From NCBI GenBank assembly GCA_963702895.1, contig OY969767.1, positions 480,001-544,000 of the forward strand: 64,000 nt of DNA. Reading direction: 5' to 3'. The notes below the pieces were generated by a model. That model worked only from the letters and a program-made list of their open reading frames with translations, did not search any database and had not been told where the DNA came from. Positions 20,691 to 64,000 of this stretch are shown here, one piece after another (the first letter of the stretch is position 1; every line of letters begins with the position of its first letter). Source of the DNA: an uncultured Elusimicrobia bacterium (GTDB taxonomy: Bacteria; Elusimicrobiota; Elusimicrobia; 2-01-FULL-59-12). A program made the position numbers and the translations under genes.

Positions 20691-20705
20691 GGCACTTTCA
20701 GTGCT

Positions 20706-20824
20706 GTCATCCCCCCCGGCTGTAAGGGGGGGACGCCACACAACAGGCGTCCGACCGTAGTGTGTCGGATCCATCATTCCACTTACGACTGTGATAGACC
20801 CCGGCTGACGACCGCCGGGGTGAC
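20706..20824. repeat. CGTC/GTCA-type REP doublet carrying a nested 36-bp hairpin (20734-20769)
   Basis: GTCATCCCC...GGATCC...GACCCCGG...CCGGGGTGAC. Confidence 0.85.
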
Positions 20825-20844
20825 GGCCTAACTGAACTTTCCCG

Positions 20845-24557: not shown

Positions 24558-24686
24558 ATGGGCGGACGGTCCGTGACGGTCATGAGTCTTCTAACCCAAA
24601 AGCTCACGTAACGCCCAAGTCTCATCGGAGCACTTTTCACCGTTTCGGTACCCCTTCCGTCGTCACCCCGATTTCTATGACCTCGG

Positions 24687-25711
24687 TCAAGCATTTTTTA
24701 GGATCCGAGGATTGACTGACCTATAGTCAGCAAGATACGGTGACTTTGTGCGCAGTACGGCACAGATAATGCGCAAGAGTTTGTTGGCAATGTTGTTGAG
24801 CGCCAAGCGTTTGGCTTTTCCGGCTTGTACTTTTCTTTCAAAGTAGTGCCTGAACTGCTGATGATGTGTGCGAAGGGATCGGGCTGCCAGGTGCAATAGC
24901 TTGCGGATGATGTCCGGACCGATCCCGCGAGAGCTTGCATTCTTGCGCACGGAAGTTCCGCTGGAGTGTTCGAGTGGGCACATGCCCAAATACGAGGCGA
25001 TGCGGCGGGGTTCCAGGGATCGCGTAAAGCCTTGGCTGATGACCATCAAATGGGCCGTCAAGAGTCGGCCCACCCCAGGGATGGTGAGCAGCAAGCTCAC
25101 CATGGGGCCAATGGTGGGGTGGTTTGAGATCAGTTGATCCAAGGCCTGATCGATTTTTTTGATCTGTTCTTTGAGATGGCGGATGGTGTCCAGGAAGCTT
25201 TGTTCGGCGAGGATCGTGCGAACGACTTTCCGGCTGATGGCCGACAAGGCATTTTGATTGGCGGTCATCTGGCCGGTCAGCTGCTCGCGCGTCGTCAGAA
25301 GAACACGGACTTGTTCGATCAAGGCTTCCGAGGGTTTCCAGAACGCGAGTTGATCGAAAAAGCGCCAGGCATATTCGGCGAGCTGGCGGCTATCGATGGG
25401 GTCGCTTTTGGCTCCCAGGGGGTGAAAGGCGCGTTTGGTTTTATGCGGCGCCTCCACCGACACCGGATAGCCTTTGGCACAGAGCCAGTAGCAGAGCTGC
25501 TCCGCATAAACACCGGTGGCTTCCATGCAGACCACGGTATTGGTGGAATCGACTCCGCGTTTCTTAAACCAGGCTTCGAATTCCTCAAAGCCGGCGGGTG
25601 TATTGGCGAGCGTCTGATGTTTGGAATACTTTTGTTCGGCTGAGCTGTAATGTGTTGCGCTGAAGGTTTGATCGGCGATATCAACGCCTATGTAATGGAG
25701 AGGTGGGTTCA
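24687..25711 (-). CDS. IS110 family DEDD recombinase/transposase
   Basis: YIGVDIA, CMEATG, KSDPIDS, TIPGVG, YLGMCP..HSSG; AGGAG RBS before MNPPLH (start position approximate). Confidence 0.95.
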
Positions 25712-25734
25712 TAAGGCTCCTTTTTGTAAGTGCC

Positions 25735-25905
25735 GACATTCGTGATGCGAGCTTTGCCTATTAAGGGTTTTTATGACATCACTTCTATCTAGCTTTGGAT
25801 CACGAAAGAATGGGGTCTTTACCGGGGTATGGTTTTCACCTTGGCGAAAGTTAGACTTATTCCATTCTTGTCGGTGTCTTCTTCTAGAGTCTACAAAGAC
25901 TCGAG
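25735..25905 (-). ncRNA. Candidate IS110 bridge RNA
   Basis: 5' hairpin GAGTCT-TTGT-AGACTC; target loop with CTTTCGCC / GGT-GAAA-ACC / ACCCCGG; donor loop with GTCATAAAAACC / TAATAGG closed by GTGATG/CATCAC. Confidence 0.8.
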
Positions 25906-26189
25906 AAAAGTCTAATAGGCGAAAGCCGGCCCTCCAGACTCCCGGCGGGCCGAGTCGCCGGACTTGTGGAGACCCGGGGTCCAGTCCATCGGATGTTCTG
26001 GATACCGGCCCGCCAGACTACCGTCGGGCCGCCCGCCAGGGTAGTGTGGAGGGCGGCGTTCGCCGGTATGACGGCATTGGCTTACGTGAGGATTTGGGTT
26101 CTTTACGCTTCCGTTGGGCAATTCCCGTAAGCGCCCGAGCCTCGCCATGATCGGCTCACACGCCATCGGCCTGGTCAAAACGATCTTAT

Positions 26190-28306: not shown

Positions 28307-30121
28307 CCCAAATAATCCGATAAGCCACCCCTGACGTCATCCCCCGCGGCCGTCAGCGGGGGATCCATCGACGGCCTTGGTGTAGGTGTTGGTGGCGGGA
28401 TCGAAGACGAAGGGTTTCACTTATTGGGTGAAAAATGAGGGGTCAACACAGGAGGCTTTGAAAAAGGGTGCAGCGCGTGATTTTACAGCGACGCGCAGAG
28501 GCAATAAAATACCTCGCAAGCCAGAGTGGAATCTGAACTGCGAGGTGCTTTTATGTTACTGAAGAACTTGGACGTATACAAGGTCTCGACGACGGATCAA
28601 GCGGTGACGAGTTTTGCAGGGCTGCCGTTGTTGTTGGGGACGGCACGGAGCCTGGGGTTGGAGGAGCGGCTCAATGCGCTGCCGGTGAAGGAGCGGGCGC
28701 GGGGATACGATCCTGCCGAGAGTATTTTGGGGTTGATGGGATCGATCCAGGCGGGCGGGGAAGCGCTCGAAGACATCGGGCTGCTGCAAGGGGACGAGGG
28801 GATACGGCGCTTGCTGGGGGATTTTCCGGCAGCGAACACGTTGGGCGAATTTCTTCGGCGTTTTGGGCGCAAGACGATTCATGGGTTGGGATGGGTCCAG
28901 CTCAAGACGGCGGCGAAGGTGATCCGGGCCTGCGAGCTGTCTATTGTGACGATCGATATCGACGCTTATTTTTTGGAGTCACAGAAGGAAGGCGTCTTGA
29001 TGAATTACGATGGACTGGAAGGGTATTGTCCGGTGATGGTCAGTTGCGCGGAGCTGAAGATGCCGCTGGCCGGGGCGTTTCGGGCAGGCAATGCGAGCCC
29101 GATGGCGAACCTGGCGAGTTTGTTGCGGCGGGTCTTGCGGCAGTTTTCCGGTTTGCGGATGAGGGCGCGCTCAGACAGCGCGGGGTATCAGGCGAAGGTG
29201 GTTCGGGAATTGGATCGGGCCGGGGTGGACTTCACCATCACGGCGCGCAAGGATGATGCCGTTTTGGAAGCGATTCGGTCGATTCCGGAGAAGGCCTGGA
29301 AGAAGTACAACTCGCCGGTCTATCCCCATAAGGGATCTGAGATTGCCGAGACGGTGCATGCTTTTGGGGAGGCGGACAAGGATATCGCCGCATTTCGGTT
29401 GGTCGTGGTGCGCTGGCAGCAGGAGCCGCAAGGCGAGCTTTTCGATAAGGAGCACTTTGAATACCATGCGGTGGCGACGCGGTTCACATGGGAACCGGGA
29501 TTGGTTCTGCAATTTCACCGTAACCGGCAGGATGGGTCGGAGAACGTGAACCGGGAGATGAAGAGCGAGGGTGGGTTTGGATTATCCAAGCTGCCGTGCC
29601 GGGATTTTATGGCCAATGCCGCCTATTTCCAGATCGCGATGTTGGCGTCGGTGGTCACGGCAGCCTTCAAGCATTTGGTTCTGCCGAAAGCCTGGCAGAG
29701 CTTCACGATCCAGACGCTGCGGCACCGGCTGATCCGCTTGGCCGGGACAGTGTGCCGGAAGTCGCGCTATCTGTGGTTAAAGATTCCGGAAAACTACCCG
29801 TTCCGGCGGGTTTTTGAAGAGGCGCGCTATGGCGTGTTGGGGCTGTCTGTGGTGATCGCGTCTACCGGTTGATTGACGGGACGGCGACACCGAAGGCATC
29901 GACGGAGGGAAAGAACCGAACAGAGGGTCGGAGCGGCGAAAACTGCCGCAAAAGGCCGACAATTGATCAGACGGTAGTCTGAACCGCCTCCGAGGGAAGC
30001 CAAGGGTACCCGAAGCAGGCGAGAAACCTGGTCGCCGCGGCGACCGAGCGGTGAAAAATTGGGACCTATGTGTGGCCTACGTCAAAACGCAGCGCTGCAG
30101 AAAATTACCGGAGCTTTTGGG
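28307..30121 (+). mobile_element. IS1380 family element
   Basis: Imperfect IRs CCCAAATAATCCGATAA / TTACCGGAGCTTTTGGG; ACATAT direct repeat at 28301-28306 and 30122-30127. Confidence 0.75.
28553..29872 (+). CDS. IS1380 family DDE transposase
   Basis: TSFAGLPL, IDID, GYCP, FRAGNA, RSDSAGY, ENVNREMK, ANAAYF, TLRHRLI. Confidence 0.9.
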   Translation: MLLKNLDVYKVSTTDQAVTSFAGLPLLLGTARSLGLEERLNALPVKERARGYDPAESILGLMGSIQAGGEALEDIGLLQGDEGIRRLLGDFPAANTLGEFLRRFGRKTIHGLGWVQLKTAAKVIRACELSIVTIDIDAYFLESQKEGVLMNYDGLEGYCPVMVSCAELKMPLAGAFRAGNASPMANLASLLRRVLRQFSGLRMRARSDSAGYQAKVVRELDRAGVDFTITARKDDAVLEAIRSIPEKAWKKYNSPVYPHKGSEIAETVHAFGEADKDIAAFRLVVVRWQQEPQGELFDKEHFEYHAVATRFTWEPGLVLQFHRNRQDGSENVNREMKSEGGFGLSKLPCRDFMANAAYFQIAMLASVVTAAFKHLVLPKAWQSFTIQTLRHRLIRLAGTVCRKSRYLWLKIPENYPFRRVFEEARYGVLGLSVVIASTG

Positions 30122-37025: not shown

Positions 37026-37137
37026 TTCAACCCCAACCTAACAGATAGAGTCTAATAGTCCTATGATTTCCGTGCAAGGGGAAATCCAGAAAGAGGATGG
37101 TCCCGATCATGGAACCATTAGCCGAAATTCTTCAGTT

Positions 37138-37222
37138 CGTCACCCCGGAGATCCGTAATCCGGGGTCCATCATCGACGTAAAAGACATGATGGATCCCGG
37201 CTGACGGCATGCCGGGATGACG
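37138..37222. repeat. CGTC-type REP doublet
   Basis: CGTCACCCCGG...CCGGGGTCCATC...GATGGATCCCGG...CCGGGATGACG. Confidence 0.88.
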
Positions 37223-37279
37223 GCACAAAGAAGGTCCGACGTCTCAGTCGATAAACCACGTCCAATAGAACTTTTCCGA

Positions 37280-51690: not shown

Positions 51691-52926
51691 TTGCGTCTTC
51701 ACGAATATCAAGCCAAAGCCGTCCTGCAGCAAGCAGGTCTTCCGGTTCCCGCTGGTGTGCCACTCCTTCAGAAGCAGGAGATGGCCTCTGTTTTGACCCG
51801 ATTGCCGCCCGGTCCCTGGGTGGTGAAAGCGCAAGTCCACACCGGAGGACGCGGCAAGGCAGGAGGCATCCTGAAAGCTCAAACGAGCGCCGATATCGAA
51901 AAGGCAGCCCAGGCCCTCTTTGAGAAAAAGCTCGTGACACACCAAACAGGACCGGATGGCATCCACATCCGAAAGCTTTATATCGAACAAGCCCAAAGCG
52001 TCACGCGAGAGCTCTATTTAGCCTGCGTGATGGATCGGGTCAAAGGACGTCCCGTGATGATGGCGTCACCGGAAGGGGGCATGGACATTGAGCAGCTCGC
52101 GCGCACCCGGCCCGAAGCTCTTTTTTATGTCGATGTCGATCCTTGGCAAGGACTTCCAGACTATCTTGCTCGCGCTCTCGCAAAACGCATGGGACTGAAG
52201 GGAGCGTCCTTAGGGGCGGTGGCTTCTGCTGCCTCCAAGGTGGCCAAGGCGTTTCTCGCATGGGACGCATCGCTCATCGAAGTGAATCCTCTTGGCCTGA
52301 CGGCGGATGAACGGGTGATCGTCATGGATGCGAAAATGAGTTTGGATGATAGCGCCCTTTACCGACATCCGGAAGCCCGAGCCTGGCGTGATCCGTCAGA
52401 AGAAAATCCTCTGGATGTGAGGGCCCAGGAAGCGGGTGTGAGTTATATCGCCCTCGCCGGCGACATTGGCTGCCTCGTCAATGGTGCGGGTCTGGCGATG
52501 GCGACGATGGACCTGATCAAGTTTCATGGCGGCGAGCCGGCCAACTTCCTTGATGTTGGCGGAGGAGCCGATGCCAAGCAGGTGACGGAGGCCTTCCGGA
52601 TCATCCTGGCGGACCCGAAGGTGAAGGGGATTCTCGTGAATATCTTTGGCGGCATCATGAAATGCGATGTGATCGCCGAAGGGATCGTGACCGCCGCCAG
52701 GGAAGTCGGCAAGGAAGTGCCGCTCGTGGTACGCCTGGAAGGTACGAATGTCGAGCTCGGGAGGAAAATCTTGCGGGATTCGGGCCTCAAGCTTGAAACC
52801 GCAAAAGATTTAACCGAAGCCGCTAAGAAAGTGATTACTGCAACTCAAAGATGTCATCCCCCGCGGTTGTCAGCGGGGGACGCCACACGACAGGCGTCCG
52901 ACCGTAGTGTGTCGGATCCATCATGA
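51691..52926 (+). CDS. sucC: Succinyl-CoA ligase beta subunit; C-terminal ~23 aa encoded by a REP
   Basis: [44 protein letters not shown]. Confidence 0.96.
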
Positions 52927-52958
52927 TGGATCCCGGCTTACGACGTGCCGGGATGACG
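52853..52958. repeat. REP doublet with nested 36-bp hairpin (52881-52916), overlapping the sucC end
   Basis: Same architecture as 20706-20824. Confidence 0.88.
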
Positions 52959-57798: not shown

Positions 57799-57819
57799 TG
57801 GACGTGATTAAGTGATTAG

Positions 57820-57963
57820 CAGGGTGCCGAAAAAGGATATCGACGCCTCTTTTGACGTCACCCCGGCGGAAGCCGGGGTCCAGTTCGTCGACGATGTTCT
57901 GGATTCCGGCTTTCGCCGGAATGACGGCCAATAAGACCTTCTGAAGGGTTTTTCGGCAGCCTG
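57820..57963. mobile_element. MITE with 15-bp TIRs and TTAG duplication, containing a REP doublet (57856-57926)
   Basis: CAGGGTGCCGAAAAA / TTTTTCGGCAGCCTG (one mismatch); TTAG at 57816-57819 and 57964-57967. Confidence 0.75.
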
Positions 57964-58066
57964 TTAGGTGATTAAGTGATTGGGGGATGCCAAGAGGAAA
58001 GCGATAAATAATCACTTAATCTTGGCCGCCCCCCTAATCACTTAATCACCTAATCACGACCAATTT

Positions 58067-61953: not shown

Positions 61954-61995
61954 TCAGGCTGGACAGGCAAGGGAGAGTTCAGGAGTAAAACGGCT

Positions 61996-62059
61996 GTCAC
62001 CCCGGCGGATTGTTAGCCGGGGTCTATCATGATGGATCCCGGCTTTCGCCGGGATGACG
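61996..62059. repeat. REP doublet
   Basis: GTCACCCCGG...CCGGGGTC...GATCCCGGCTTTCGCCGGGATGACG. Confidence 0.88.
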
Positions 62060-62069
62060 AAAGAAAAGG

Positions 62070-63281
62070 ATGAAACGCACCATTTATCTCGATCATAACG
62101 CGACCACGCGACCTCGACCGGAAGTGGTGGAGGGGATGCTTCCTCACCTGCGCAGCCATTACGGCAACGCGTCCAGCCTCTATGCGCTCGGTCAGGAAGA
62201 GCGCCAAGCGATTGATGTCGCGCGCGCACACGTTGCGCGTTTGATTGGGGCGCAAAGTCCAGAAGAGGTCGTCTTCACCAGCGGCGGCACCGAGTCGATC
62301 AATTGGGCGATTCAGGGGGTGGCCCATGCGAACCGTTCCAAAGGGCGGCATATCGTCACGACGGCCATCGAACATAGTGCGGTCCTCAAAACCTGCCAGT
62401 ATTTAGAAACGTTGGGCTGGCAGGTGACGTATGTGGGGGTCGATGGGCGTGGACGCGTGAGCCCCGCCCAGATCCAGGAAGCGCTCACGCCAGAGACGGT
62501 GCTCGTCAGCGTCATGCATGCCAATAACGAGATCGGCACGATGGCCGAGGTGGATAAAATTGGCAAGCTCTGCCGTGCGCAAGGCGTTCCCCTGCATGTT
62601 GACGCGCTGCAAACCGTCGGGAAAATCCCTGTTTCGGTCGAAACGCTGCCGTGCGACCTTTTGTCCATCGGTGCCCACAAGTTTTATGGCCCCAAAGGTG
62701 TTGGAGCCCTCTATCTTCGCCCTGGGACCAAGATCCACCCGCTTCTGTATGGAGGAACACACGAGCGCAACCGGCGGGCCGGAACAGAAAATGTCCCCGG
62801 TATTGTCGGGATGGGTATCGCATCGGCACTGGCCGCCAAAGACATGAAGAACGATGAAAAGCATGTCTGCCACCTCCGTGATCGGTTGGAGAAGGCGCTT
62901 CTCGCGAAGCTGGAGTGTGTGCAGTTGAACGGCGATCCTGAACATCGCCTCTTCAATACGTCCCATCTGAGCATCGAGGCTCTCGAAGGGGAGGGGCTCA
63001 TCATGGGCCTTGATATGGAGGGCCTCTGTGTGTCCTCCGGGAGCGCCTGTTCTTCGGGTCAAACGGCGCCCTCCCATGTCCTGCGAGCGATCGGGGTGCC
63101 CCTCGAGCTGTCCAAGGGATCGGTCCGTTTCTCTCTTGGTCGAGACAACACCGAAGAAGAAATTGAGCGGGTCCTGGAGGTCTTCCCCAAGGTGGTCGAG
63201 CGCTTGCGCCATCTTTCGCCGCTTTGGGGCGATTATCAGAAGGGACTTCGAAAGTCGGTAATCACCAAACTGGAGGTGTAG
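62070..63281 (+). CDS. iscS: Cysteine desulfurase (IscS/NifS)
   Basis: YLDHNATT, FTSGGTES, AHKFYGPKG, SSGSACSS. Confidence 0.93.
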   Translation: MKRTIYLDHNATTRPRPEVVEGMLPHLRSHYGNASSLYALGQEERQAIDVARAHVARLIGAQSPEEVVFTSGGTESINWAIQGVAHANRSKGRHIVTTAIEHSAVLKTCQYLETLGWQVTYVGVDGRGRVSPAQIQEALTPETVLVSVMHANNEIGTMAEVDKIGKLCRAQGVPLHVDALQTVGKIPVSVETLPCDLLSIGAHKFYGPKGVGALYLRPGTKIHPLLYGGTHERNRRAGTENVPGIVGMGIASALAAKDMKNDEKHVCHLRDRLEKALLAKLECVQLNGDPEHRLFNTSHLSIEALEGEGLIMGLDMEGLCVSSGSACSSGQTAPSHVLRAIGVPLELSKGSVRFSLGRDNTEEEIERVLEVFPKVVERLRHLSPLWGDYQKGLRKSVITKLEV

Positions 63282-63290
63282 TGCGTTTGT

Positions 63291-63645
63291 CGTCACCCCG
63301 GCGAAAGCCGGGGTCCAGAGCACACCATGGAAAAACGGCCTTGCGTCTACATCCTAGCAAGTCATAGGAATGGCACACTGTACGTTGGCGTTACCTCAGA
63401 TTTGCTTAAACGAATTTGGGAGCACAAATATGATGTTGTTGAGGGATACACTAAGAAATACAAGGTTCATACGTTGGTTTGGTATGAAATGCATGTGACA
63501 ATGGATGCCGCGATCCGGGCGGAAAAGGCTCTCAAAGAGTGGAAGAGATCTTGGAAATTAGAGCTGATTGAAGAAAAAAATCCCGAGTGGAAAGACTTGT
63601 ATGAAGAACTGCTTTGACTGGATTCCGGCTTTCGCCGGAATGACG
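63291..63645. mobile_element. REP doublet whose loop is occupied by a GIY-YIG gene
   Basis: Left arm 63291-63318, right arm 63618-63645; matches the empty doublet at 57856-57926. Confidence 0.7.
63327..63617 (+). CDS. Stand-alone GIY-YIG nuclease
   Basis: VYILAS.RNGTLYVGVTSDL.KR..EH...LVWYE...EK.LK.WKRSWKLELIE..NPEW.DL. Confidence 0.93.
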   Translation: MEKRPCVYILASHRNGTLYVGVTSDLLKRIWEHKYDVVEGYTKKYKVHTLVWYEMHVTMDAAIRAEKALKEWKRSWKLELIEEKNPEWKDLYEELL

Positions 63646-63649
63646 ATTT

Positions 63650-64000
63650 GTGAGTAGCAAAGTGGTCGTGGCTATGTCGGGCGGGGTCGATAGTTCTGTG
63701 GCCGCGGCGCTCCTCAAGGAGCAAGGCTATGACGTCTACGGCGTTACCATGCGCCTGGCCGATTGGCAGGCGACAGAAGGCCCCTCCTCCGCCAAGGCTA
63801 CGGAGGGCCAGCCCTCCATAGCCTCTGCGACGGAGGGCCAGCCCTCCATAGCCTCTGCGACGGAGGGCCAGCGGACCTTTGGGGGCTGCTGCGGTTCCAA
63901 GGATTTCTACGACGCGCGCTCCGTGGCGCAAACGCTGGGTATACCCCACTACAGCTTTGATTATGTGGAGAAGTTTCGGGGTTCTGTGATCGGCTATTTC
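63650..64000 (+). CDS. mnmA: tRNA 2-thiouridylase MnmA (partial)
   Basis: Manual translation from GTG 63650: [22 protein letters not shown]...GGCC...DARSVA..LGIPHY. Confidence 0.93.

Follow-up and report, generated by a model that had tools for sequence, protein, structure and literature searches.

What is a nuclease gene doing inside a pair of repeats that stand without a gene elsewhere in the same genome, and does its product move those repeats or only recognize them? The question is raised by a locus of an uncultured Elusimicrobia bacterium (GenBank assembly GCA_963702895.1, contig OY969767.1), which lies in a window of 64,000 nucleotides, i.e., positions 480001-544000 of a single-contig genome of 2.72 Mb and 57% GC. 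Here, we identify the gene and its repeats, as judged from their sequences, as very probably a new example of the published Ssn/SRM system.

The gene lies inside a hairpin doublet, as the sequence-only reading of this stretch had described. The left SRM/CGTC-1 hairpin arm (63291..63318, plus strand) has its CGTC tag on the outside, an 8-bp stem, a 4-nt loop and a TCCAG tail toward the gene, and it stops 8 bp short of the start codon (ATG at 63327). The ssn gene (63327..63617, plus strand) encodes a predicted 96-aa, single-domain GIY-YIG nuclease (Pfam PF01541, E 1.3e-15) and has a GC content of 42.6% compared to 57% for the genome. The right arm (63618..63645, minus strand) begins immediately after the TGA. 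Both arms fit the published SRM pattern, each forms an 8-bp hairpin as ssDNA (fold z -4.1 for the left and -4.7 for the right arm), and each has 8 exact copies in the genome; the right arm has 2 mismatches (one compensated stem pair) compared to the Neisseria NTS consensus. The two 28-bp arms are mutually inverted and inward-facing, yet they are not identical, their stems differing at 4 positions. Pfam matches identify the host genes on either side as an iscS/nifS-type cysteine desulfurase upstream (62070..63281, plus strand; PF00266) and the 5' part of mnmA downstream (63650..64000, plus strand; PF03054; GTG start; 432 aa in the genome), confirming that the unit sits between iscS and mnmA. 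The region of mnmA encoding the N-terminus also contains an in-frame tandem insert of approximately three 27-bp units (63776-63870), and the full protein has more low-complexity inserts.

Several lines of evidence place the protein in the Ssn family. Chenal et al. (2025; PMC11893778) described Ssn nucleases (cd10448) as proteins of ~94 aa that act on ssDNA only, bind a 28-nt CGTC hairpin (NTS/SRM) and cut just upstream of it. First, the 96-aa protein is identical at 53 of 93 positions (57%), in an ungapped alignment, to a 94-aa SsnA-type protein of N. gonorrhoeae (database E 2e-31). The gene for this protein sits amid 12 NTS matches, and we infer that it is the SsnA orthologue, the locus being unannotated in its record. 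With the gonococcal protein as proxy, homology to Neisseria SsnA extends over >75% of the length at E < 1e-10; the identity to this proxy, 57%, is below the stricter cut-off of 60% that PMC11893778 sets for identity to N. meningitidis SsnA. The same paper also counts homologues on E-value alone. Second, Y8, Y19 and E66 align in the ungapped alignment to the gonococcal protein with Y6, Y17 and E64, the positions mutated in PMC11893778, and are invariant in 18/18 aligned homologues, which we chose from ~100 loci. Third, the AlphaFold model comprises one domain (pLDDT 94), and its best fold matches in the PDB are the GIY-YIG domains of UPF0213, Slx1 and UvrC, with the UPF0213 protein BH0048 on top (E 1.6e-3). 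The fold search gave nothing at E <= 0.001, the sequence search for a solved structure gave no match, and the NCBIfam scan of the protein gave no model at its cut-off. Fourth, the genome contains 147 SRM matches compared to 20-32 in 10 dinucleotide shuffles. Membership among the RAYT/REPtron proteins, which is defined by a HUH Y1 transposase (PF01797), was rejected; the protein has a GIY-YIG domain instead. In a quick protein tree (91 rows x 96 columns), in which 7 of 88 branches had strong support, genes from the host's own family did not cluster (4 changes versus 4.2 shuffled). Our literature search, from whose coverage subscription journals were mostly absent, found no paper on Ssn beyond PMC11893778.

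These findings support a model, to which we assign a probability of roughly 0.85, in which the protein is an Ssn nuclease with cognate hairpins and would cut ssDNA just outside each arm, the cutting being modeled on SsnA. For SsnA of N. meningitidis, hairpin binding is Mg-dependent and restricted to ssDNA, and the NTS75 oligo of PMC11893778, taken together with the 20-nt product, places the cut by our calculation 4 nt 5' of the CGTC tag. By analogy, the enzyme studied here probably attaches to the CGTC hairpins on either side of its gene while these are single-stranded, and its cuts probably fall a few bases beyond each hairpin. Because the arms face inward, the predicted cuts lie outside the cassette on opposite strands, and the enzyme would in that way mark the cassette ends. 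We suggest that such marking could occur during replication or DNA uptake and that joining would be left to host repair or recombination. Cleavage by GIY-YIG enzymes is hydrolytic, and they are not known to stay covalently attached to the DNA for rejoining; a covalent tyrosine intermediate is not expected.

Are such cassettes mobile at all? The genome contains a second ssn gene (genome 554270-554563), a 67% identical paralogue 11 kb from the first, in a cassette (genome 554228-554603) with two long-loop arms in the same arrangement. Both ssn genes have ~43% GC, and each cassette is single-copy, the genome holding one cassette plus its one 67% identical paralogue. Both cassettes lie where the stop codon of one operon gene meets the start codon of the next, and comparison with relatives shows these junctions without them. 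Among eight same-family loci, one of which ends at a contig edge, iscS and mnmA directly adjoin in 5 of the 7 informative genomes (gaps of -4, 17, -4, 8 and 8 to the first aligned residue), and other inserts of 679 and 836 bp occupy the junction in the remaining two; none of 29 iscS loci of relatives had an ssn match. The paralogue lies between a TPM-domain gene and a nucleotidyltransferase-like gene, as we read the translations, and this junction is closed in 4/4 relatives showing both genes, three more loci being uninformative. Thus, both cassettes interrupt junctions that are closed in relatives, and ssn cassettes do enter genomes at sites particular to a lineage. The relatives belong to other species, their IscS proteins being 68-77% identical, and therefore the insertion could be old and the exact ends of the empty site cannot be read from them. 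By our reading of the iscS-mnmA junction, ~4 extra bases lie to the right and ~11 to the left of the cassette, so a cut offset of 4 nt agrees with just one of the two sides. Neither a TIR nor a target duplication of the IS1182/IS5 type is present at the ssn cassette itself. Among 96 ssn loci from other genomes, one resembled the context of either cassette, by a 33% match to the upstream side.

Two observations on cassette neighborhoods may be added. At the paralogue cassette, the bases to the right of the arm provide a GGAGG motif and the ATG for the downstream gene. In Azospirillum lipoferum 4B (NC_016623.1:255506-255799), an ssn homologue separates sufB from sufC, so that here too the insertion affects an operon for Fe-S/sulfur functions.

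The genome is rich in arms without a gene. A structural rule yields 310 arms genome-wide, of which 125 are short-loop and 185 long-loop (8-9 nt), and 109 of 122 pairs of neighboring arms within 500 bp face inward as in the cassette. In the window, a degenerate arm pattern gives 5 matches versus 0 in each of 100 shuffles. The observation that the two arms of the cassette recur without the gene proved exact: the doublet at 57856..57926 has the same arms, separated by a 15-bp spacer, and its left arm has one mismatch, so that gene-bearing and gene-free units share their termini. Related doublets had also been noted at 20706, 37138, 52853 and 61996. These doublets are real; however, most of their arms are long-loop, unlike the 4-nt-loop arms flanking the gene. 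They comprise a long-loop doublet with a 55-bp spacer (20705..20825), a second long-loop doublet (37138..37222), a third at the sucC/sucD junction (52852..52958), and a mixed doublet of a long-loop and a 4-nt-loop arm just upstream of iscS (61995..62059). By sequence, the gene-free doublets would be target sites for Ssn. As a population they are mixed: DDE-type MITEs carry at least one third of them, a few arms lie in an IS1380 element, and no carrier was identified for the rest. Overall, 53 of the 109 doublets touch a MITE or IS carrier and 56 are carrier-free, a call made with looser patterns that have ~5% false positives per arm. Long outer flanks are shared with another arm by 104 of the 310 arms (633 pairs versus 0-2 in random draws).

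What, then, spreads the hairpins? The explanation that survives best, and to which we give slightly less than an even chance, is that they are passengers. The hairpins would travel mostly in YTAR-duplicating MITEs, in IS1380 and by recombination, and ssn would be a domesticated ssDNA restriction enzyme that, as in Neisseria, limits how far DNA with such hairpins is taken up or recombined, with no role in moving the repeats. In agreement with such a role, SsnA lowers transformation by NTS-bearing DNA (PMC11893778). Support comes from the MITEs. MITE-1 has ~70 copies of 146-210 bp with a 4-bp YTAR duplication and a hairpin doublet at a fixed point; the copy at 37122..37279 (158 bp, TTAG on both sides) carries the long-loop doublet 37138..37222. 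Among copies with both ends, 26 of 36 have an exact 4-bp direct repeat, mostly YTAR, compared to 7.9 +/- 2.2 after shuffling (maximum 18 in 20000), and 36 of the 109 doublets abut the MITE-1 long arm. For this count, both ends were anchored on the TIR alone; 35 of 71 candidates lack a second end under our rule. Of the 84 matches to a MITE-1 profile, 65 are followed by an SRM and 11 have hairpins of another family in its place, and passive carriage leaves unexplained how several doublet types and a second hairpin family came to occupy one fixed point of the MITE.

MITE-2 tells a similar story for the very doublet that shares its arms with the cassette. The doublet 57856..57926 is carried in a MITE-2 copy of 144 bp (57820..57963), in which the TIRs start with CAGG and TTAG is present on both sides (57816-57819 and 57964-57967). 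An exact 4-bp repeat is found in 3 of 4 closed copies of MITE-2, and its TIR is common to IS1182-like elements. In another genome, this TIR forms the ends of a 1360-bp element whose flanking 4-mers differ by one base and which encodes an IS1182-like transposase of 374 aa (E 3e-54, a score under the family cut-off); at a metagenome locus it delimits a 1316-bp element flanked by CTAG on either side. The other short elements that have the MITE-2 TIR mostly lack an SRM. MITE-2 around this doublet was thus likely moved by an ordinary transposase; against this stands that a search of the host's own genome for relatives of the IS1182-like transposase gave none. Our literature search, again with subscription journals mostly outside its coverage, found nothing on REP doublets in YTAR MITEs.

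A search of the genome for an empty MITE-1 copy or an autonomous MITE-1 partner found none. IS630/Tc1 was rejected as partner, there being no PF13358 match, and so was a PF01609 transposase, the 7 matches of which represent one IS4-family element with other ends. The ends of MITE-1 and a group II intron inside it led us to consider the elements as integron attC sites; this reading was rejected as well, the end 4-mers being direct (26/36) with an inverted match in 3/36, and no integrase scoring over the TIGR02249 cut-off. The group II intron encodes a 462-aa reverse transcriptase and is present in 3 copies (genome 1961780-1963746, 229517 and 463101), each of which begins just inside a MITE-1 end. 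In addition, SRM arms in several MITE copies harbor, at a fixed point, a nested 48-bp module of two hairpins, giving rise to variants of 200-214 bp (e.g., genome 237595, 424502 and 440095).

Insertion sequences are also associated with the arms. The IS1380-family element, represented in the window at 28307..30121 (plus strand), has 7 full copies of ~1815 bp with 6-7-bp duplications and one SRM arm ~30 bp inside the left end (in the window a single long-loop arm, 28335-28368); altogether, 8 arms lie at the left end of this element or its stubs, in line with carriage of hairpins as passengers. At the IS110 element around which a doublet had been noted (24670..25917, minus strand; ends accurate to within a few bases), the insertion interrupts one arm of a hairpin pair. 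NCBIfam labels it an IS110 RNA-guided transposase. It occupies the same position inside an SRM arm in 5/5 copies, i.e., in the window and at four other sites in the genome. A second IS110 family, with two subtypes and 5 copies, lies in the MITE-1 short arm (genome 671371-672771, 2232107-2233506, 2427392-2428756, 416551-417923 and 645884-647239).

The explanation by passive carriage accounts neither for the 56 carrier-free doublets nor for the insertion of the two cassettes, and these are the features on which the original proposal could build. In that proposal, which we now consider doubtful, the cassette is an autonomous unit, and Ssn distributes copies of the gene-free doublets across the genome, the role proposed for RAYT in the case of REPINs. 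Several observations are in its favor. Both cassettes occupy junctions of coupled genes that are closed in relatives, each has one loop class (4-nt here, 8-9-nt at the paralogue), and the neighboring arm pairs mostly share the inward orientation of the cassette. Even carrier-free arms have G at -2 in 67% and T at -3 in 50%, which might mark the edge of a unit close to where SsnA cuts. For CGTC repeats, Di Nocera et al. (2013; PMC3733652), who classified such repeats as CGTC-1, equal to dRS3, found no dedicated transposase in the part of their survey considered here. Nor did we find an intact Y1/RAYT gene in the genome; RAYT was rejected as the hairpin partner, the sole PF01797 match being a truncated fragment 13 kb from the nearest arm.

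Against copying by Ssn stand, first, the chemistry expected for a hydrolytic GIY-YIG cut, which leaves no covalent link, and second, the absence of any reported strand-transfer activity in the sections of PMC11893778 drawn on here, which report cutting only. Third, neither cassette exists in a second copy. Fourth, the doublet spacers are unrelated to the cassette interiors: they share 0-3 anchored matching bases with the interior of this cassette (88/88) and 0-2 with that of the paralogue (87/88), which rules out that the doublets are internal deletions of either cassette. Fifth, direct repeats flanking the doublets are not in excess (24 with >=5 bp compared to 21.5 +/- 4.0 after shuffled pairing). 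Sixth, loop classes are mixed within 18 of the 109 doublets, and the bias at -2 and -3 is absent among 118 arms from other genomes. Finally, the doublet at 57856 that had been cited as the empty counterpart of the cassette is MITE cargo, as are at least one third of the doublets, in TIR-bounded elements with a 4-bp duplication of the kind typical of DDE transposition. The claim of an autonomous cassette with non-autonomous doublets is therefore not supported. A third long doublet (222 bp, genome 1113074) contains nested repeats and no ssn frame.

Because no intact RAYT was found, Ssn is nevertheless the best candidate for the 56 carrier-free doublets and for the entry of doublets into the MITEs. 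A more far-reaching proposal builds on this candidacy, and we regard it as unlikely. It holds that the Ssn proteins are the missing mobilisers of CGTC-type REPs and that both the cassettes and the bare doublets travel by cutting and repair of ssDNA, a route initiated by the GIY-YIG enzyme and free of tyrosine chemistry. The two cassettes of this genome, inserted independently and differing in loop class, would have seeded ~300 hairpins, dropped them at a fixed point in the MITEs, which would then have amplified them, and created target sites for IS110.

That gene and hairpin belong together is borne out by the flanks of homologous genes. Of 75 GTDB loci, 35 have an inward hairpin on each side at a distance of up to 150 bp (22/75 by the SRM pattern alone), compared to 0/140 control windows 1 kb away; the 75 loci with 150 bp of flank on both sides come from the best 80 of 121 confirmed loci, which contain near-duplicates, and the counts are therefore not independent. 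At least one side has an inward hairpin in 56 of the 75 loci, and 19 have none on either side within 150 bp. Outward-facing hairpins are found upstream in 17/75 and downstream in 16/75 loci, and the NTS copies closest to the gonococcal gene also face outward. Among loci of relatives at E < 1e-15, 7/14 have inward hairpins on both sides and 12/14 on either side (controls 0/23). The association of small GIY-YIG homologues with REPs that had been predicted is thus found, and it supports a specific tie between CGTC hairpins and the GIY-YIG genes that belong to this clade. A chance association, in which REPs landed by accident beside a generic small GIY-YIG repair nuclease of the UPF0213 type, is excluded: the ~310 arms in the genome and BH0048 as top fold match would speak for it, but arms lie 1-10 bp from both ssn genes and none within 3 kb of the three other, more distant GIY-YIG genes of the genome, and the homologues differ from the control windows as described.

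The idea of a GIY-YIG-based analogue of RAYT is upheld with regard to the tie between clade and hairpins and to lineage-specific insertion; the analogy itself is already in print. The Discussion of PMC11893778 likens NTS-ssnA-NTS to a mobile element, to IS200/IS605 transposases and to REPs, and proposes domestication; the paper reports SRM on both sides within 5 kb in 42% of homologues. The pairing of gene and repeat is thus known, and the value of this locus is as a clean test case for what spreads CGTC repeats, a question raised in PMC11893778 and PMC3733652. One single-contig genome combines two Ssn paralogues, each with a hairpin class of its own, with junctions that stand empty in relatives and with a separable set of MITE-cargo doublets. 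The latter warn against counting every doublet as Ssn offspring. The genome also adds two candidate ssDNA-specific nucleases that possibly differ in specificity.

Compared to Ssn/SsnA and NTS/SRM (PMC11893778), the cassette has the same 94-96-aa single-domain GIY-YIG protein, the same catalytic positions, CGTC hairpins on both sides and an SRM-enriched genome. It differs by its host, a new uncultured lineage outside the 29 reference genomes of that paper, by the presence of two paralogous cassettes with distinct loop classes, and by a minimal inward cassette with one arm per side, compared to the NTS clusters of Neisseria. The empty junctions in relatives are another difference; the sections of PMC11893778 used here report none. 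Compared to CGTC-1 REPs including Neisseria dRS3 (PMC3733652), the arms share the CGTC tag, the 8-bp stem, the 4-nt loop, the CCA tail and the arrangement in mostly tag-outside dimers. They differ in that the majority here is long-loop (185/310 arms) and in that at least one third of the dimers are carried in YTAR-duplicating MITEs; the part of PMC3733652 consulted describes dimers within longer palindromes in one species, without target duplication.

With IS1182/IS5-type insertion sequences and MITEs, the system shares the envelopes of many doublets, which have TIRs and 4-bp YTAR duplications, the MITE-2 ends matching those of IS1182-like elements. With the RAYT/TnpA-REP REPtrons and REPINs, it shares what would be a small ssDNA-hairpin-recognizing enzyme, inverted cognate repeats flanking the gene, and many gene-free doublets. 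In contrast to RAYT, however, the enzyme has a GIY-YIG rather than a HUH Y1 fold, and the repeats have a CGTC rather than a GTAG tag.
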